Of a stretch of DNA of 64,000 nucleotides, positions 875 to 45,181 are shown one piece after another (within the stretch, counting starts at the first letter, position 1; every line of letters begins with the position of its first letter). The stretch spans positions 160,001-224,000 of the forward strand of contig CAWHVC010000002.1 in NCBI GenBank assembly GCA_963832745.1, in the 5' to 3' direction. The translations under genes were made by a program, and so were the position numbers. A model generated the notes under the pieces. That model did no database searches. It saw only the letters and a program-made list of their open reading frames with translations, and had not been told where the DNA came from. The stretch is from Candidatus Bathyarchaeota archaeon. Lineage in GTDB: Archaea > Thermoproteota > Bathyarchaeia > Bathyarchaeales > Bathycorpusculaceae.

Positions 875-2311
875 ATGGCCGGAAGATTCCTCAGCCTATT
901 CAAACCAATAGGTAGAGTTCTGCCTGAAATAAAAAAACCCGAACGCAAAGTCTCATTTAACGAAAAAATCTTCTGGACCGCGCTTGTTTTAATCATTTTC
1001 CTAGTCATGACTGAAGTCCCCCTCTACGGGGTCAGCACAAATGCACAAGACCAGTTCGGTCAGTTGAGAGTTATCTTTGCTTCCAACCGCGGCACCTTAA
1101 TGGAGCTAGGTATCGGCCCCATCGTGACGGCTGGTTTAATTCTCCAATTACTTGTTGGTTCATCAATCATCAAATGCGACATGTCAAATCCTGAAGATAG
1201 AGGTCTCTTTACTTCAGCAAGCAAAGTTTTCTCTATCGTATTAACTGCTGTTCAAGCAGGCGCATACATCCTCAGCGGCATGTACGGTACAATTACTGGA
1301 CCCATAATGATTGCTATATTCTTCCAGTTACTAGTTGCAGGCATAATTGTGATGCTTCTCGACGAATTAGTCCAAAAAGGATGGGGTCTAGGCAGCGGTA
1401 TAAGCCTATTCATCATGGCAGGCGTTGCCCAAAATATATTCTGGTCAATGTTTGCTCCATCAAACGGTCTATTCGTGGGTGCATTAGACAATTTACTCAA
1501 AGGTAGCATAACTACGTTCGACTGGATTGTAGGCACCTCCAGCGGATACTTCCCATCCTTCATCGGCTTCATCGCAACCATCGTCACATTCATAGTAATC
1601 ATCTACATGCAAGGCGTCCGTATCGAACTCCCAATGACTTACGCAGGATACAAAGGCTTCCGCAGCAGATACCCAATCAAACTACTCTACGTCAGCAACT
1701 TGCCAGTCATCTTCGCCAGCGCACTCTTCGCAAACGTGTTCTTCTTCACACAGCTACTCTGGACACAATTCGGAAGACCAGCACCAGGAACAAACTTGTT
1801 CTTCCAAATCTTCGGTGACTATAACCAAACACTAACAACCCTTTCAGATGGAACCACTCAACAAAACGTTGTAAACGTCGGCGGCTTAGCACATTTCATG
1901 TCTCCACCAAACGGACTCATCAACGTTGGTGTAGACCCATTGCGTGCAGTAGGTTACCTTGGCATATTGGTGGCTTTCTGTGCCATCTTCTCGCTAATTT
2001 GGCTTGAAGTCGGCGGATTAGGCCCCAACAAAGTCGCACAGCAACTCATGGACAGCGGCATGCAGATTCCAGGCTACAGGCGAAGCGGAAGACCGATTGA
2101 GCAAATACTAAAACGCTACATTCCAGTTGTAACAGTGCTCGGCGGTATAATAGTCGGTTTAATAGCTGGCTTAGCAGACTTCCTTGGCGTTTACGGTTCA
2201 GGCACCGGTATCCTGCTGTCAGTAGGTATCATCTATCAGTACTATGAACTGTTGATGCGTGAACGCGCTGCAGAAATGTTCCCAGCGTTCAGAAGAATAC
2301 TGGGTGAATAA
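875..2311 (+). CDS. secY: Protein translocase subunit SecY
   Basis: GTLMELGIGPIVTA, GWGLGSGISLFI, YPIKLLYVSNLPVI, GSGTGILL motifs; about 10 TM segments. Confidence 0.99.
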   Translation: MAGRFLSLFKPIGRVLPEIKKPERKVSFNEKIFWTALVLIIFLVMTEVPLYGVSTNAQDQFGQLRVIFASNRGTLMELGIGPIVTAGLILQLLVGSSIIKCDMSNPEDRGLFTSASKVFSIVLTAVQAGAYILSGMYGTITGPIMIAIFFQLLVAGIIVMLLDELVQKGWGLGSGISLFIMAGVAQNIFWSMFAPSNGLFVGALDNLLKGSITTFDWIVGTSSGYFPSFIGFIATIVTFIVIIYMQGVRIELPMTYAGYKGFRSRYPIKLLYVSNLPVIFASALFANVFFFTQLLWTQFGRPAPGTNLFFQIFGDYNQTLTTLSDGTTQQNVVNVGGLAHFMSPPNGLINVGVDPLRAVGYLGILVAFCAIFSLIWLEVGGLGPNKVAQQLMDSGMQIPGYRRSGRPIEQILKRYIPVVTVLGGIIVGLIAGLADFLGVYGSGTGILLSVGIIYQYYELLMRERAAEMFPAFRRILGE

Positions 2312-2324
2312 GCACCAAAAAATA

Positions 2325-2358
2325 GGGCTTGAAAAAGCCTCTCTTTATTTTTTCTTTA
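2325..2358 (+). terminator. Short hairpin plus T-rich tract after secY
   Basis: gggctt-gaaa-aagcct followed by ctctttattttttcttt. Confidence 0.45.
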
Positions 2359-2408
2359 ATCTAAAATTTTAAAAATTTTTGAAGACATTGTAATTGCTAA
2401 TTAGCAAG

Positions 2409-3668
2409 TTATTTTTTGTCTTGCCCGTATTCGCCTGATTTTATTTTGTCTACAAGCAAACCAACAAACTCTATTGGCCACACGTCATCGCATACGTCGC
2501 TTGTTAGAATGTTTCTCTTGTTAAAGAAAGATATCAAATCATTTTTCAAGAGCAGAATAAGCATGAATTTGTGACCATAAGTTTGTTTAAACAGGGAATA
2601 CTTTGAAGACTGCTTAAGATTCATTTCATAATGCGGCTCAAGAACAATTTTTCTGCCGTTAACTTCTTTGTCCAAAATAAAATCCGGCGTATACTTGTCA
2701 CCAGGCAACGGAAACGTGATAGTTTCATAACCATACGGAATATGCATCCGCATCAGCATCCGCGCAGTTTCTTTTTCCCAACCACTTTTATAACGACTTA
2801 ACTTCTGATAATGAACTTGCGGTTGACCAGTGACTTTCTGGATTTGATCAAAAAACTGCAACGCTTCTTTTAAGGTACTGCGATTAAGATTTTTGCGTTT
2901 GAGCCACCTGCCCAAAAGGAAAAACGGGTAATCCGCTTTTGCTGGGTCACGGGGGAAAATCCGTTTAGCATACTCAGTGATTTTTAGTTGTGCTTTTAAG
3001 GCAGCAGTTTCGTCTTTCCATAAATACGGTGCAGTGGAATTTATTAAGCCCAAGCTTATTGCAACGCTTGCGTTTTCCCTTGTTAAGGGTACCATTAAAT
3101 CTTCGGGTGAAAAGTGCTTAAAGATTTCAAGGTCCGGTTCGGGACGCACCATCCATCGCATGTACGTCCAAGCTTTGTCTTTATGGATGCCTCTCATCCT
3201 TTCAATGCTTCTAGTTAATTCTTCAACAAAATCTTTAGGTTTAGCAAATCTTAGCGAGTAACGGATTAAGTCTCTTTCAGCTTTGAATTTGACAAAAATG
3301 TTTACTGCGGCTAACGTTTCAGGAATAGCTTCTTTACGTGGACCAAGATAATTGTAAAAACTGTACTTTACGATTTCTTCGCCGAAAAGGTGCGGTTTAG
3401 TTATCTCAAAAAGCCGGGGAGCTCCAAATTTTTCGTGCAAGTTAATAAGCAGGTTTCTAGCGTTTTCTGAAAAACCTACCATCTGATCATCAAGTATGGA
3501 TGCGGAAAGCAGGAAATAGTGTGCTGCATTCTTTTTTTCTTCATAATCTTTTGAGTAAGGGTTAAACAGTAATCGTGGGTTCATTCTTCTGTCCCACTGT
3601 ATATCGGCGACGTTAGTGTTGGTTCTTACAAACTTTGCCAGTAATGAATGCAAGTCATCGGTCGCCAT
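2409..3668 (-). CDS. DUF2400/TIGR02757-like (HhH-GPD superfamily) domain fused to a C-terminal T7 endonuclease I-like PD-(D/E)xK domain
   Basis: YMRWMVRPEPDLEIF..FSPEDLMVPL...FPRDPAKADYPFFLLG matches the DUF2400 pattern; YKSGWEKE...IPYGYE...YTPDFIL...IVLEPH resembles T7 endonuclease I. Confidence 0.7.
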   Translation of the reverse strand: MATDDLHSLLAKFVRTNTNVADIQWDRRMNPRLLFNPYSKDYEEKKNAAHYFLLSASILDDQMVGFSENARNLLINLHEKFGAPRLFEITKPHLFGEEIVKYSFYNYLGPRKEAIPETLAAVNIFVKFKAERDLIRYSLRFAKPKDFVEELTRSIERMRGIHKDKAWTYMRWMVRPEPDLEIFKHFSPEDLMVPLTRENASVAISLGLINSTAPYLWKDETAALKAQLKITEYAKRIFPRDPAKADYPFFLLGRWLKRKNLNRSTLKEALQFFDQIQKVTGQPQVHYQKLSRYKSGWEKETARMLMRMHIPYGYETITFPLPGDKYTPDFILDKEVNGRKIVLEPHYEMNLKQSSKYSLFKQTYGHKFMLILLLKNDLISFFNKRNILTSDVCDDVWPIEFVGLLVDKIKSGEYGQDKK

Positions 3669-3893
3669 TCTAATATTTTGCCTCTCTATCTATTCTATAG
3701 TTAATCTTTTAATAATTACCTGTCAACTAATTCAATATTGCCTGACTAAAATGGCGTTTTCATACCAGACATCTTACCTTTTTACAGCATGCGATTTTCA
3801 AACGGAACAGACTCTATATGTTGAACGAAAAATCAGTAAAAACGGTTATAAACAAGGAAGAAGGATACGCATACACAATAAGTACTTAAGTGA

Positions 3894-4373
3894 ATGAGAA
3901 TGTCGGCGACAGAGTTATCTTGGATCGCAACTGCACCCGTTGCAACAGTAATTATCATGGCTATTGCGCTTGTAATTGCAATCGTTAACACATCAATCAA
4001 CAGAGCACTTATCAGCTACTTTGTTGGTTGGGATAAATATCGTACAATGCAAAAAGAAATGGCTGAATACCGCAAAGAAAGCATGGCTGCCGCTCGTTCG
4101 AACGACAAAAAGCAAATGGAAAAACTCAAGAAAAGGCAGTCACAAATTACCGCTATGCAGGCTCAAATGGCCAAACCCCAAATGGTGCAGCTAGGCATAT
4201 CTTTCATTTATATTGTGGTATGGTGGTTCGTCTTAATTCCCCTTTTCGGGAGTGCTCCAGTAGCTATTGTGCCTGGTTTTGGGCCAATCTCAGTGATTTA
4301 TTGGTATCCCATCACATCCTTCTTCCTTGGGTTACTAATGCAACGCCTCTTGGGCACAATGCCTTTGGAATAA
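3894..4373 (+). CDS. DUF106/EMC3-TMCO1 family membrane insertase (Oxa1 superfamily)
   Basis: TM, coiled coil, TM layout with WY motif; conserved position between secY and cmk. Confidence 0.88.
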   Translation: MRMSATELSWIATAPVATVIIMAIALVIAIVNTSINRALISYFVGWDKYRTMQKEMAEYRKESMAAARSNDKKQMEKLKKRQSQITAMQAQMAKPQMVQLGISFIYIVVWWFVLIPLFGSAPVAIVPGFGPISVIYWYPITSFFLGLLMQRLLGTMPLE

Positions 4374-5528: not shown

Positions 5529-5756
5529 ATGGAAACATTTTTTGTATTCCTTGGATTCACAATGATTATTGTACTTGTACTTTTTTTACCAGTATTAATT
5601 GAACTTAAGAAACCAAAAGATATTGCACCGCGGAAAATAGTTGATTTCAAAACGGTCCTGTTATTGCAGACTAAAAAAGAAGTGGCGCCCAATAATCAGC
5701 CTTTAAATGGCACTTTGGCTGCCGCGGTTGAATCTTTAACTAACTTGGAAGTTTAA
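5529..5756 (+). CDS. Small single-TM hypothetical protein
   Basis: N-terminal TM then LPVLIELKKPKD; AT-rich TATA-like box upstream. Confidence 0.55.
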   Translation: METFFVFLGFTMIIVLVLFLPVLIELKKPKDIAPRKIVDFKTVLLLQTKKEVAPNNQPLNGTLAAAVESLTNLEV

Positions 5757-6793
5757 CTCTTCTTTAGCAGCAGGGAAGCGTTTTTCCATTGTTCCATAGC
5801 TAATGAAATGTGGCCCGAAGGTGACCCATAAATTGAATAAAACACGTAACAAAGATACGTGCATTGAGTGCAAGTCCTGTACTGCTCACGTAAATCATTG
5901 AATTTTTCACTCTTCCAGTTTTTAGGCAAATCGAAAATTGAGCCTGCAAAAGTGTGATTGTGGCAACCCGCAACTCTGCCCAGATGGTCCACGACTAGAA
6001 AGCTTTGAAGCGCTTTGCAATTCCAAGTTCTTTTTTCTTCAGCGTAGAGGCTTCTTAACGTTTTTAGAAGTTTGTCTGTCATTAAGATTCTTTTGTTGGT
6101 TTTCTTCATTTCTTTTAAAGTGTCGCAGAGTTTAACCATGGCTTCTTTATCGGTTATTATGAATTCGTCATTAGGTTTGCCGATGCGGAACAGTTGGTCA
6201 GGATCATCTGTCATGTCGTATGAGTAAAGGCAATACCAAACAGGGATACCCTTGCTCGTGAAGTAATTAGTGATATCCACGATTTCGTAAAGATTCATTT
6301 GAGAAATCGTTGGAGTAACGCTAACTTTTATTCCCTCTTTCTGCAGGGTTTCAACTGTTTTCATGGCGTTTTTCCATGCACCAGGCACATTTTTTATGTA
6401 ATCCTGTTTTTTCTCATCAAGGCTATCAATAGATAAAGCGACAAAATCAACTTTTCTTAAGAGATCAATTTTTTTTGCCGCCATGCTACCGTTATCATAT
6501 ACTGTAGTTACAAACCGTTGGGTAGCATAATCAATAATTTCTCCAATGTCCTCTCTTAGCAGTGGATCGCCGCCGGACAGAACAAGCTCAACTATGCCCG
6601 CGTCTTTCAGAATGTCCATGCCTTTTTTAATTTCTTCAGTTGAGAGTTCGTTTTTGTCTTGTTCTTTCCATACATTGCAGCCTAAGCATTTGTAATTACA
6701 TTTTCTTGTAATAAGCCATTGTGCATGGTGTGGTTTGCCGTGAACAAGTGAACGTGCTGCTACGTTTGCTGCCTTTTTTACTCCCATAACCAA
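5753..6793 (-). CDS. Radical SAM protein with C-terminal SPASM/twitch-type Cys motif
   Basis: CNYKCLGC, SGGDPLLR, C-terminal C..GC..CTQCTYLC. Confidence 0.92.
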   Translation of the reverse strand: MVMGVKKAANVAARSLVHGKPHHAQWLITRKCNYKCLGCNVWKEQDKNELSTEEIKKGMDILKDAGIVELVLSGGDPLLREDIGEIIDYATQRFVTTVYDNGSMAAKKIDLLRKVDFVALSIDSLDEKKQDYIKNVPGAWKNAMKTVETLQKEGIKVSVTPTISQMNLYEIVDITNYFTSKGIPVWYCLYSYDMTDDPDQLFRIGKPNDEFIITDKEAMVKLCDTLKEMKKTNKRILMTDKLLKTLRSLYAEEKRTWNCKALQSFLVVDHLGRVAGCHNHTFAGSIFDLPKNWKSEKFNDLREQYRTCTQCTYLCYVFYSIYGSPSGHISLAMEQWKNASLLLKKS

Positions 6794-6978
6794 ATAGGGT
6801 CACTAGCCGCTTAAATTTGATATTAACACTTAATCAAATCTGGACTATAAAAACCATTATTAAAGTTCACCTGTTTGCTGTATCTGAATCTCTTCTTTAG
6901 GTGCTCCAACTAAGGCTTTATTCGGCTAAGCCTTATAGGCACAAATGTAAGTGTAAACTGAACGGAAGCTGGGTTCAA

Positions 6979-7710
6979 ATGGTGGATTCGATTGATGTTG
7001 TTCTGCTGACAAAGAACAGTGAGCGGGCGTTAGTCAAGTGTCTAGACTCACTTTACCAGAACGTTCCAGTCCACCAACTGATTGTAGTTGACGGGTACTC
7101 TACCGATGGCACTCTTTCAATAATAGAAACTTATAGCCAGAAACATTACAACGTAAAAGTAATTTTTGATAAAGGTACTCGCGCTTCAGCCCGACAAAAA
7201 GGAATCATGGCCGTGCAAACTGAATGGTTCATGTTCATAGACAGTGACGTCGTTTTATGCCGTGATTGGTTCCAAAAAACCATCAAAAACATTGACGCAG
7301 ATGTTGGGGCAGTTTGGGGGACTGAAGTCTGGTCTACCTTGAAAAACCCCAAAATGCTAAAACTATTCTTGGTTGTTACCCGCAAAATTTTCGAAGTACG
7401 CGGTGGCACACATGACACTTTAATTCGCTCTTCACTTGTTAAAGACATCCAAATACCCGCTGAGCTTCATGTTTTTGAAGATGCATACATAAAAGACCAT
7501 ATAACCCGTAAAGGCTACAAGGTAGTGGCTTGTTATGACCCTTTCTGTATTCATTTTAGACCTGATTCTGTTTGGACTTTAAAAGGCAGTTTAGGTTTAG
7601 TTGCTGAGGCACTACGGTTGGGTAGTCCCCATTTGATTTCGAAGCTGCTTTTGGCTTACGGCTTCTACACTGGCTACTCAGTTTATCAATTTTTTGCAAA
7701 CAACAAATAA
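6979..7710 (+). CDS. Glycosyltransferase family 2
   Basis: VVDGYSTDGT, FIDSD (DxD), FED motif; ATG at 6979 preferred over 6901. Confidence 0.9.
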   Translation: MVDSIDVVLLTKNSERALVKCLDSLYQNVPVHQLIVVDGYSTDGTLSIIETYSQKHYNVKVIFDKGTRASARQKGIMAVQTEWFMFIDSDVVLCRDWFQKTIKNIDADVGAVWGTEVWSTLKNPKMLKLFLVVTRKIFEVRGGTHDTLIRSSLVKDIQIPAELHVFEDAYIKDHITRKGYKVVACYDPFCIHFRPDSVWTLKGSLGLVAEALRLGSPHLISKLLLAYGFYTGYSVYQFFANNK

Positions 7711-7766: not shown

Positions 7767-8543
7767 GTGTTAAATTTGAGTAACTCTCTGGCGCAAATTG
7801 ATGTGGTGCTGCTTACCAAAAACAGCGAGTACCTTCTTGCAAAATGCTTGACCTCGATCTACCAAAACGTGCCAGTTCACAGGCTACTTGTGGTTGATGC
7901 TTACTCCACTGACCGAACTATTGAAATTCTAAAAAAATTCAACCAAAAACACCGCAACATAATAATCGTAAAAACCAATGGCACTCGTGCTCAAGCACGC
8001 GAAACAGGTATTAAACATGTCATCACCGACTTCTTCGCTTTCATAGATAGCGACGTTATACTGTGTAGGGATTGGTTCAAAAAAGCCTTCGCTGAAATGA
8101 AGGATGGTGTCGGTGCCGTGTGGGGTGTAAACATTGATGTAATCCCAAACGTTAAACAAAAATGGTTCTTGCTGTTGGAAAGCATGATTGCACGCCAAGG
8201 CTTCCGTTTACGAGGCGGAACACATGACACGCTTATCCGAAAAAGCGCTTTGGAGGGGTTACATATTCCTGAGGAACTTCATGCTTTTGAGGATGCTTAT
8301 CTTATTCGTTGGGTCGAAAAAAGAGGGTATAAAGCGCTTGTTGGCAGCAGCATCTATTGTTTGCATTATAAGCCGCCGACAAACTGGAGTCCCCAAAACG
8401 CCGTAGACCAAGCAATTGTCGAATTCAAATGTGGCATGCTTCACTCCCACCTTTATTCTTATGCCCTGTTCTATCCAGTGTTCATGTTTTACTGGTTTTT
8501 GCAAGTGCCGCTTAGCGGTTTTGGCGGTCAACTAAAAAAATAG
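7767..8543 (+). CDS. Glycosyltransferase family 2, tandem paralog
   Basis: VVDAYSTDRT, FIDSD, RGGTHDTLIR shared with the upstream GT2. Confidence 0.9.
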   Translation: MLNLSNSLAQIDVVLLTKNSEYLLAKCLTSIYQNVPVHRLLVVDAYSTDRTIEILKKFNQKHRNIIIVKTNGTRAQARETGIKHVITDFFAFIDSDVILCRDWFKKAFAEMKDGVGAVWGVNIDVIPNVKQKWFLLLESMIARQGFRLRGGTHDTLIRKSALEGLHIPEELHAFEDAYLIRWVEKRGYKALVGSSIYCLHYKPPTNWSPQNAVDQAIVEFKCGMLHSHLYSYALFYPVFMFYWFLQVPLSGFGGQLKK

Positions 8544-18219: not shown

Positions 18220-18897
18220 TTAGACTCGCAAGACTATTTTTTCTGTGTACTTGCCAAGTATGCCTGCGAACTCGTTTATGGTTTCAGGCGCGTATGGATG
18301 TACTGTCTGGAAATGTTTGTCCATAGTGTTTTCTGGTACGAATTGTTGTAGTGCGTGGGTTTTGGCGCCTTTTGTTAATTCGCCGATTTTGTCAGCGTCT
18401 TGCAGGGTTACGAGTTCAGGTACGATGGTGGTGCGGAATTCGTAGGGTACTTTGCCCATTTTGAGCATTTCCAAGCTTTTCATAAGGTTGCTGGTGTCTT
18501 CTGCGCCGAGTTCCTTGTATTTTTCTGGGCAAGTCTTAACATCCAACGCCACGTAATCCACGTAGCCGAGGCATTCCTCAAGCACTTCAGGGTAGAACCC
18601 GTTTGTGTCAAGTTTGACGTAGAAGCCGCGTTCTTTGAGTTTGGCAAGGAATTTAGGCAGTTCCCGGTGCATACAGGGTTCACCACCTGTGACTACTACG
18701 GCGTCAACATATTTTTTGCGACTCTCCAAAATCTCCAACGCGGCGGCTTCCTGTAGAAACGGCGGTTGCGGGTCTGTAGCGATTTTCCAGTTGTGACAAT
18801 ACGGACAGCGAAGGTTGCAGCCGGGGGTAAATAGCACGCTGGCTATCTTATCGGGGTAGTCAAGCAAACTTAATTTTTGTAATCCGCTAAACTTCAT
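18220..18897 (-). CDS. nrdG: Anaerobic ribonucleotide reductase activating enzyme (radical SAM)
   Basis: SLLDYP, GCNLRCPYCHN, TGGEP, KLDTNG; directly after nrdD. Confidence 0.93.
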   Translation of the reverse strand: MKFSGLQKLSLLDYPDKIASVLFTPGCNLRCPYCHNWKIATDPQPPFLQEAAALEILESRKKYVDAVVVTGGEPCMHRELPKFLAKLKERGFYVKLDTNGFYPEVLEECLGYVDYVALDVKTCPEKYKELGAEDTSNLMKSLEMLKMGKVPYEFRTTIVPELVTLQDADKIGELTKGAKTHALQQFVPENTMDKHFQTVHPYAPETINEFAGILGKYTEKIVLRV

Positions 18898-44224: not shown

Positions 44225-45181
44225 TCAAACATTTACTCTAAAAGCCCAATTCAAGTAAGTTCGAAAATCTCTTGAAAGCACCAAAGAAGGCTCAACGTAA
44301 CAATGAAGGCTACATTTTTGGCAATCCTGTGTGACCTTCCAGTTAATTCCGGCTATTGCCGTTTTAATGCTAGTTTCCAAAACGGAGACGCTTGTTGCAT
44401 ATTCATTTCGTACATAACAGGGAAGAACCAGCTTTCCATCCGGACCAACATTAATCATGGCCCAAGGTTTGCATGTCCACTTCTTCTCTCTCGTCATGAC
44501 TTTAAAGTAACTCATAGAATTCACAAGAGGGTACCCCTTCTTTTTCATTGTAACAAGCTTTCCAGCTATTTCCCTGATTTCTTTTGCTGTAGGCGCAGAC
44601 GCTTTGGCATTACAATAATCATGCGCTATAGCTACGGATATTCGGGCGTTTACTTCCTTTGCAAGCTTCACCATTCCTTCAATTTCGTCAAGGTTTTCAG
44701 ACATTATAGTAGTGTTAATTGTAACTGGAACCTTTTGTGCGGCTGCCGTTATACCTCTTAACGCTTTTTTAAAGCATCCATTAACTCCGCGGATTGTGTC
44801 ATGAGTTTTTTCTAAACCGTCCAACGAAACATACACGACGCCATTGATGTAAGGTGATATTTCATCAATTCTAGACTCAAGAAGGGTACCGTTAGTTATG
44901 ATGCTTGTGTGTAATGGCAGTGAACGTGAAAAAGAAAGGATTTCACTCAAATCTTTTCTTAGAAGTGGTTCTCCGCCTTCGAACGCTATTCCGCAGGCGC
45001 CTGAATTATAAATTTGCCTTAGGATTGCTTTTTCCTGTTCAAGGCTCGAATCTTGGACGGGTCTTTTCCAGAATGGGCACATTTTGCATCGTAGGTTACA
45101 GTTATACGTTAACTTGTGGCCGCAAAACAAGGGGACTTTGATGTCAAATAAGTTAGAGATCAAACCGCGATAGATTCTCAT
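44225..45181 (-). CDS. Archaeal radical SAM protein, PTO1314-family-like
   Basis: GHKLTYNCNLRCKMCPFW, FEGGEPLLR, WTCKPW..LPCY..CQKCSLHCYVEPS. Confidence 0.85.
   Translation of the reverse strand: MRIYRGLISNLFDIKVPLFCGHKLTYNCNLRCKMCPFWKRPVQDSSLEQEKAILRQIYNSGACGIAFEGGEPLLRKDLSEILSFSRSLPLHTSIITNGTLLESRIDEISPYINGVVYVSLDGLEKTHDTIRGVNGCFKKALRGITAAAQKVPVTINTTIMSENLDEIEGMVKLAKEVNARISVAIAHDYCNAKASAPTAKEIREIAGKLVTMKKKGYPLVNSMSYFKVMTREKKWTCKPWAMINVGPDGKLVLPCYVRNEYATSVSVLETSIKTAIAGINWKVTQDCQKCSLHCYVEPSLVLSRDFRTYLNWAFRVNV

Follow-up and report, generated by a model that had tools for sequence, protein, structure and literature searches.

The question raised by this locus is what a protein would do that joins a DNA glycosylase-like domain without its catalytic aspartate to a nuclease of the T7 endonuclease I type. 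The gene encoding it (2409..3668, minus strand, to which all coordinates within the gene refer) lies in a 64,000-nt stretch of DNA from Candidatus Bathyarchaeota archaeon, here called the window, and specifies 419 aa followed by a stop codon, with an ATG start, according to the open reading frame (ORF) list and its translation. A genome search gave a single match, i.e. the gene is present in one copy in its own genome. The N-terminal domain (residues 1–285; 2814..3668) is a divergent DUF2400 domain predicted to adopt the all-helical fold of the HhH-GPD (helix-hairpin-helix, HhH) glycosylases and proposed here to act as a sensor, and the C-terminal domain (residues 286–419; 2412..2813) is a predicted T7 endonuclease I-like nuclease of the PD-(D/E)xK type. 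We regard it as highly probable that the protein combines an inactivated glycosylase module with a conserved nuclease site.

Both domains had been proposed in an earlier note made from the sequence alone, together with two altered motifs, PLT for the usual PLD (Pro-Leu-Asp) of DUF2400 and EPH for the ExK of the nuclease. All motifs quoted there were located in the translation: RWMVR at residues 171–175, PDLEIF at 178–183, VPLT at 193–196 and FPRDPAKADYPFF at 238–250 in the N-terminal half, and KSGWE at 294–298, YGYE at 312–315, YTPDF at 326–330 and LEPH at 343–346 in the nuclease half. Profile and fold searches back both domains, and both motif changes recur across the family. For the N-terminal domain, the Pfam profile DUF2400 (PF09674) matched with 44.1 bits against a gathering cut-off of 25 (E 3.2e-11), the match spanning just profile positions 145–223 of 225, i.e. 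the last third, and TIGR02757 gave 44.3 bits, far under its equivalog cut-off of 139.2. The two matches cover residues 168–253 (2910..3167), within which RWMVR, PDLEIF, VPLT and FPRDPAKADYPFF are found. No match to Pfam HhH-GPD was reported in a Pfam scan of the 419-aa protein. Among 576 homologues in a large protein collection, PF09674 was present in all 120 that were listed.

An AlphaFold model was built on 18 diverse full-length relatives and had a predicted local distance difference test score (pLDDT) of 87.8 and a predicted template modelling score (pTM) of 0.84. When residues 3–287 were compared to known structures using VIA-align, the best match was Qng1/DUF2419 (7u07; Z 15.2, 237 residues aligned, root-mean-square deviation 3.9; human 7ugk, Z 14.6), followed by Thermotoga Ogg (3n0u, Z 14.9) and EndoIII (2abk, Z 12.5), with MutY, AGOG, OGG1 and AlkA as lower-scoring matches and TAG (1lmz) at Z 6.5. 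A total of 22 chains with the two-lobe helical HhH fold reached Z≥8, nearly all of them glycosylases, and Foldseek returned the same families in the same ranking with a probability of 1.00. Because residues 3–287 match HhH-GPD structures in both VIA-align and Foldseek, DUF2400 is, as judged from the model, a glycosylase-fold family that can be placed in the HhH-GPD superfamily next to Qng1. The family is without an assigned function to date: in the full-text literature, DUF2400 had one incidental mention in an unrelated paper, and TIGR02757 and PF09674 had none. The best viral fold match, the unnamed 382-aa BFVD entry A0A7U3MW78 (E 1.4e-5, 336 aligned columns, 17% identity), spans both domains and may be a viral protein of the same two-domain build.

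Residues at the key positions were counted by aligning 269 family proteins to the family profile; 131 of these have both domains, 31 the N-terminal domain only and 15 the nuclease only, and the residues of 92 unclassed fragments were left uncounted. Position 196, the Asp of the PLD motif in DUF2400 and Thr in the protein studied here (codon 3081..3083), was found to be Thr in 127, Ser in three, Asn in one and Asp in none of the two-domain proteins, compared to Asp in 26, Thr in four and Ser in one of those with the N-terminal domain only. The HhH-motif Lys position, Lys165 (codon 3174..3176), is kept here and relaxed across the fused clade, with Lys in 92 two-domain proteins, Glu in 18, Arg in ten, Asn in five, Gln in four and His in two, compared to Lys in 25, Arg in five and His in one of the N-terminal-only proteins. 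Five of the latter lack the Asp, one of them ending in a HicB-like domain and the other four being short and probably truncated. Close relatives (61–94% identity) make up around 120 of the 131 two-domain proteins, and the Asp losses are therefore not independent events. The Asp-less proteins formed one clade in a quick maximum-likelihood tree (Shimodaira–Hasegawa-like approximate likelihood ratio test, SH-aLRT, 95), which indicates a single origin of the fused clade, and from these alignments the loss of Asp appears as a fixed trait of that clade, coupled to the nuclease fusion. In the same quick tree, the sister of all nuclease-fused members was the 330-aa protein P0126, whose N-terminal domain lacks the Asp (PLT) and continues into a HicB-like/UPF0150 domain where the others have the nuclease.

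The canonical bacterial and the stand-alone archaeal DUF2400 proteins follow the pattern ...RKK.WM..RWMVR..PDL...(I/V)P(L/V)D.(N/H)V..., and R171, W172, R175, D179, P194, D241, P242 and D246, which belong to the pocket region, are invariant in fused and stand-alone forms alike. In the protein studied here, the loop preceding the HhH Lys is shorter by three residues than in other DUF2400 members, and about seven residues are inserted ahead of the FP.DP motif. The conservation in the N-terminal domain is, by all appearances, that of a chemistry lost and a binding surface kept. We infer that Thr196 occupies the position of the HhH-GPD catalytic Asp from the likeness in fold, the spacing to Lys and two weak local alignments. 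The distance from Lys165 to Thr196 is 31 residues, and that from K199 to D231 in Qng1 is 32; D231 and K199, in the HhH region, are described as the sole residues invariant across Qng1 and the HhH DNA glycosylases, both being catalytic (PMC9881137). The only segment aligned between the families in comparisons of the DUF2400 profile with EndoIII by hhalign and hmmsearch was vPLD.NV with V(A/P)VDTHV of EndoIII (E 0.03 with the EndoIII of the genome itself, E 0.23 with PDB 9nzc); the two results, both below significance, gave the same register of the Asp motif and were used for that register alone.

In the C-terminal domain, single-sequence searches gave 15.7 bits for Pfam Phage_endo_I (PF05367), under the threshold of 29.1, and no match in the PDB, and residues 286–376 matched PHROG 945 ('endonuclease', E 7.6e-7) and phrog_9019 ('Holliday junction resolvase', E 2.2e-5). 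A profile of 18 family members searched against PDB sequences reached T7 endonuclease I in four entries (1m0d, E 1.5e-7; 2pfj, 1.6e-7; 3cae, 6.5e-7; 1fzr, 7.3e-7), and on the strength of these alignments residues 286–419 are predicted to be a true homologue of this enzyme. With T7 residue numbers counted from the printed chain numbering of the alignment, Glu298 (codon 2775..2777) pairs with Glu20, Pro328-Asp329 (2682..2687), the 'PD' of the nuclease motif, with Pro54-Asp55, and Glu344-Pro345-His346 (2631..2639) with Glu65-Thr66-Lys67, so that a His stands at the position of the catalytic Lys. Glu315 (2724..2726) aligned to Glu37, two residues past Glu35 on the same strand, and Gly313 is found at the Glu35 position. 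Mutagenesis has identified Glu20, Pro54, Asp55, Glu65 and Lys67 as needed for catalysis by T7 endonuclease I, as reported in PMC11833611. Glu298, Glu315, Asp329, Glu344 and His346 are invariant in 131 of 131 fused proteins, across 30–94% identity, Glu298 also in 18 of the 18 profile members, and the stand-alone nuclease relatives likewise carry E-P-H; among the 15 nuclease-only proteins, the five residues are E-E-D-E-H in eight and variants of this in seven. The invariant change from Lys to His amounts to a natural experiment on PD-(D/E)xK catalysis.

Comparison of residues 294–417 with structures (VIA-align) gave the PD-(D/E)xK nucleases Bax1, PspGI, Can2 and Vsr at Z 6–7.8, and phage endonuclease I models in BFVD matched the nuclease domain with 24–25% identity. 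A tblastn search of phage genomes with the nuclease domain gave one weak match, to a Pelagibacter phage endodeoxyribonuclease (E 3e-3). T7 endonuclease I is described as a domain-swapped dimer (PMC3424549), and the lowest pLDDT of our monomer model (60–68) falls on residues 281–320, the segment swapped in the T7 enzyme, which is suggestive only. Three relatives of the nuclease domain (P0228, P0236 and P0248; 256–307 aa) show E-A-H or E-V-Q at the E-P-H site; their N-termini are rich in lysine, their C-terminal regions contain several CxxC pairs and are zinc-ribbon-like, and none of the three gave a Pfam match. The nuclease-coding region also contains a 22-nt inverted repeat (window 2427–2448 and 2673–2694, 91% complementary, 224 nt apart), probably by chance.

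The lost Asp together with the invariant nuclease residues is what one would expect if an active nuclease were coupled to a reader devoid of catalytic function, and to this extent the residue counts support what the earlier note had suggested; the choice between restriction and repair, the ligand and the nuclease activity itself are treated as conditional here. As the catalytic Asp is lost and the HhH Lys seemingly no longer needed, the N-terminal module would not remove bases, and it would still bind a non-canonical nucleotide, probably flipped out. The nuclease, whose acidic metal site is complete and which has His346 for the usual Lys, would probably be dimeric by analogy with T7 endonuclease I and would cut near the site found by the sensor. 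The most likely role of the protein would then be modification-dependent restriction of foreign DNA, as an archaeal equivalent of the END nucleases known from bacteria. Binding without base excision, His-dependent nuclease activity, dimerisation, the ligand and the defence role are all steps that we infer. A sensor-directed nuclease mechanism as such is reasonably likely, and if it is true the protein is also a possible new reagent for the detection of modified or damaged bases. The full reading, including the role in defence, in which an active and probably dimeric nuclease is guided to a non-canonical base by a glycosylase domain that has been disabled and serves as the sensor, is the one we favour, tentatively and as something possible rather than probable.

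The setting of the gene shows it to be accessory and inserted. Within the window, secY (875..2311, plus strand) is followed by the gene studied here on the minus strand, by a gene for an EMC3/TMCO1-like membrane protein (3894..4373, plus strand; Pfam PF01956, E 1.6e-12) and by a cytidylate kinase-like gene (cmk); secY and the EMC3-like gene form the two edges of the insertion site and lie outside the proposed system. The corresponding site is empty in two sister genera (loci L175 and L176, compared with window 2312–3893), where L15, secY, the EMC3-like gene and cmk are found with a short spacer alone. Since these genera keep secY, the EMC3-like gene and cmk unbroken, the 1.26-kb gene represents an insertion into a ribosomal/secY cluster, on the opposite strand, that took place in the line of descent of the window's genus. 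Signs of a mobile element were looked for at the insertion, and neither flanking direct repeats nor a clear shift in composition was found. Among 80 genome loci, the EMC3-like/cmk side is common to 13, with secY as well in nine.

Among 201 genomes of the class Bathyarchaeia, 29 gave any match and 20 encode the full-length two-domain gene, the matches being found in nine of the 82 genera. All 12 other genomes of the window's genus and all three of a second genus have the full-length gene, compared to none of 13 genomes from nine other genera of the same family, one of which gave a match to the N-terminal domain only. The loci closest to the gene studied here are from Bathy-6 / 'Bathycorpusculum' genomes, and the hosts of the fused family comprise Bathyarchaeia and, according to source names, Nitrososphaerales. 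Decayed copies with in-frame stop codons were detected in four genomes of the class (G056:C7:10785-11867, G116:C19:27475-27906, G110:C13:2121-2396 and G069:C38:145287-145481), the first of which also has an intact copy. No longer fusions were found among proteins of 735–2095 aa, which is weak evidence.

A link to defence was sought in the neighbouring genes. At 38 metagenome loci of more divergent members, 162 neighbouring ORFs fell into 122 clusters, the largest of which occurred in four loci; no partner gene is thus conserved, and the gene appears to be a one-gene unit. The neighbours in its own clade gave generic PADLOC matches only. Among more divergent members, PDC-S02 directly upstream and BrxL with an HmaC-like ATPase were found in two genomes, and 11 of the 38 metagenome loci had strong defence matches, to PbeA (two loci), PDC-S02 (two), mad2-like (three), MkoA/DpdJ-like, BrxHI-like and PDC-M37B proteins. 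E values for the defence families near divergent members include 6e-111 for BrxL, 7.8e-37 for PDC-S02, 8.7e-60 for PbeA, 2e-104 for BrxHI and 6e-49 for MkoA. At E≤1e-30, defence matches were found for nine of 160 neighbours and for none of 93 controls (Fisher two-sided p 0.028).

Several candidates in the vicinity were considered and rejected. A 121-aa HExxH protein is encoded 48 nt downstream in 47 of the 80 genome loci, with a JAB protein beside it in 48 of the 80; the two were rejected as functional partners, as the pair stays together on another contig of the same genome in the absence of the gene studied here, and the adjacency therefore looks like plain synteny. The HExxH protein (about 120 aa, no Pfam match) and the Prok-JAB protein form a convergent pair (L029:7296-7661, plus strand, and L056:7651-8073, minus strand; in the own genome L081:1492-1842, plus strand, and 1852-2415, minus strand), and this zincin-like and JAB deubiquitinase-like pair may be a unit in its own right. 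Matches to pVip and VakA near the gene were likewise discarded as signs of defence; both are generic, the kinase being the cytidylate kinase of the cluster. Three radical-SAM genes of the window (5753-6793, 18220-18897 and 44228-45181, all minus strand) match PADLOC models for pVip (viperin) with E 1e-13 to 1e-22, the first of them also giving a weak SPASM match, and look like cases of generic radical-SAM similarity instead of viperins. Two adjacent ORFs of similar sequence (6901-7710 and 7767-8543, plus strand; both with VVLLTKNSE... and LCRDWF...) look like tandem paralogues.

A number of observations weigh against the favoured reading. The protein itself matched none of the PADLOC 2.0 families at E≤1. 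No defence enrichment was seen at E≤1e-10, where 11 of 122 cluster representatives matched compared to eight of 93 controls (6/46 and 2/47). Generic helicases or a cysteine desulfurase account for several of the strong matches, the loci are related to one another and the controls were drawn from a different lineage, so that the p value given above is no more than suggestive. Viral contigs scanned with N-terminal-domain patterns yielded no relatives, and no fusions with classical modified-base readers were seen. At the residue level, the equivalence of Thr196 and the catalytic Asp lacks significant sequence support (E 0.03 and 0.23), and the substitution of His for Lys67 could weaken or abolish cleavage. 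The gene is also inherited stably within its own genus (12/12) among the housekeeping genes secY, EMC3-like and cmk, and such a stable housekeeping locus is as compatible with a domesticated repair gene as with defence.

Host repair is thus a serious rival, even if we consider it rather unlikely. The protein would then be a repair endonuclease whose Asp-less HhH-GPD domain recognizes a lesion in the cell's own DNA, e.g. an abasic site, an oxidized or alkylated purine or a mismatch, and whose nuclease incises beside it, providing another route of excision with a logic like that of archaeal EndoMS/NucS or endonuclease V or Q. The closest folds are those of repair glycosylases, PADLOC recognizes no defence family in the protein, and all 12 genomes of the genus retain the gene at a fixed position among housekeeping genes. 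It also draws on the stand-alone, Asp-bearing DUF2400 proteins, which are fused to or adjoin DUF6884/YaaA-like proteins and occur with UvrD and a Cas4-like nuclease that has an OB fold; DUF6884 has been linked to lesion binding (PMC11701544), and together this suggests a part in DNA repair or surveillance for the DUF2400 family at large. Set against this are the patchy occurrence in the class (full-length in 20 of 201 genomes) with decayed copies, the insertion of the gene into an otherwise conserved cluster and the lack of a conserved repair partner, and double-strand cuts made at lesions in the cell's own DNA by a dimeric nuclease of the T7 endonuclease I type would be hazardous. As to the stand-alone proteins, DUF6884/YaaA-like fusions are seen in P0149 and P0151 and adjacent genes at L092:2632-4077 and L093:5292-6817; at L092, a PDDEXK_1 protein, a UvrD helicase and the OB-fold Cas4-like nuclease are encoded together with DUF2400 and the DUF6884/YaaA-like protein, and the set may constitute a multi-gene DNA-surveillance module.

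It is also conceivable, at a distinctly lower probability, that the protein is a nuclease for branched DNA or Holliday junctions and that the HhH-GPD-like domain is a mere appendage for non-specific DNA binding or docking. Direct homology to a junction-resolving enzyme and the PHROG resolvase match fit this view, as does the description of HhH motifs as binding DNA without sequence preference (PMC9881137). However, the N-terminal pocket residues are invariant in fused and stand-alone forms, beyond the needs of a generic DNA clamp, and the Asp loss is specifically coupled to the fusion. The genome moreover encodes its own Hjc and several canonical HhH-GPD proteins, and the protein is therefore neither the sole resolvase nor the sole glycosylase of its host, the former being a further point against a junction-resolving role.

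We assign a similarly low probability to the N-terminal domain still being an enzyme, i.e. an Asp-independent glycosylase or one using Thr/Ser196, with the nuclease processing the abasic product. A precedent is TAG, which is not known to have the catalytic Asp and acts on labile cationic bases. TAG (1lmz) was indeed among the fold matches at Z 6.5, and position 196 is far from random, being Thr or Ser in 130 of 131 fused proteins with invariant motifs around it. Yet the HhH Lys is relaxed to Glu, Asn, Gln or His in 29 of the same 131, which argues for a chemistry that was lost and not changed, and the Asp is one of the two residues described as invariant across HhH glycosylases and Qng1 (PMC9881137). 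Very improbable, finally, is a dead nuclease, with His for Lys and the protein acting as a DNA-binding factor or regulator only: the Lys67 position is indeed changed, and K67A T7 endonuclease I is the form crystallized with a junction (chain 2pfj shows Ala there), but four acidic residues and the His that are invariant in 131 of 131 proteins across 30–94% identity are unexpected of a dead site, E-P-H is kept in stand-alone relatives too, and enzymes of the PD-(D/E)xK fold such as Vsr are listed as active-site variants (PMC3424549).

The favoured reading of a disabled glycosylase domain directing a nuclease can be given a more specific form, in which the DUF2400-derived pocket, with the 7-deazaguanine nucleotide glycosylase Qng1 as its nearest solved relative, would read a hypermodified purine, for instance a derivative of 7-deazaguanine, in archaeal virus or plasmid DNA and the His-dependent dimeric nuclease would make a double-strand break. 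In this detail the proposal is a long shot. If true, it would describe the first archaeal END-type restriction enzyme and the first assigned function for DUF2400. The broader sensor-plus-nuclease reading, if right, would mean that archaea arrived at the END principle independently and with other components, and it would offer a handle on how DNA is modified in viruses of Bathyarchaeia and marine Nitrososphaerales, of which almost nothing is known.

Among known systems, type IV modification-dependent restriction enzymes combine SRA, EVE, PUA or YTH readers with a nuclease. The protein studied here shares with them a single-gene, modular sensor-plus-nuclease design and a patchy distribution, but its reader fold differs and it matches no PADLOC model. 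With T7 endonuclease I (PF05367; 1m0d, 2pfj, 1fzr, 3cae) it has in common a homologous core in which Glu20, Pro54-Asp55 and Glu65 are conserved, whereas it has His for Lys67, Gly313 at Glu35 and, fused ahead of the nuclease, a domain of 285 aa. The RWMVR..PD and DP..DYP motifs are common to the protein and DUF2400/TIGR02757, from which it is set apart by Thr for the Asp of PLD, the fused nuclease and a score that misses the TIGR02757 equivalog cut-off. Ogg2, AGOG, EndoIII and MutY have the same two-lobe HhH fold (Z 11–15) and, in contrast, keep the catalytic Asp. Qng1/DUF2419 (7u07, 7ugk), the queuosine-5'-monophosphate glycosylase, is the best structural match, with near-equal spacing from the Lys to the Asp position; however, the identity is 8–10%, Qng1 keeps D231 and K199, and it is described as acting on a free nucleotide, with insertions that block the DNA cleft (PMC9881137).

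The closest parallel in design is with the END nucleases described in a 2025 preprint (bioRxiv 2025.03.31.646159; PMC12191111), in which an inactivated EndoIII/Ogg-like sensor of hypermodified bases is fused to a PLD nuclease, or, in END-Mag, to a NucS-like PD-DExK nuclease. According to that text, END nucleases were shown by experiment to restrict phages with hypermodified DNA, and those restricted by END-Mag had modified guanine. Like END-PaCF1 and END-Mag, the protein studied here has an HhH-glycosylase-fold domain, in its case without the catalytic Asp of its family, together with a nuclease. END-Mag has an archaeal-Ogg-like sensor and a PD-DExK nuclease, and the HHpred matches given for it (Sulfolobus, Methanocaldococcus and Thermotoga Ogg) overlap with the fold matches 3n0u and 3fhf found here. 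Compared by description only, our protein differs in having a nuclease that is T7 endonuclease I-like and neither PLD nor NucS-like, a sensor at the N-terminus and an archaeal host. The sensor is moreover of the DUF2400 type, a name absent from the main text of PMC12191111, and the members listed for ten clusters of the present family did not include END-Mag (accession MDV2503288). The END principle itself is known, and what is new is a putative END-like logic assembled from different parts, a DUF2400/Qng1-like sensor and a T7 endonuclease I-like nuclease in an archaeon, and, for DUF2400, a clade in which the loss of the catalytic Asp goes with fusion to a strictly conserved nuclease.

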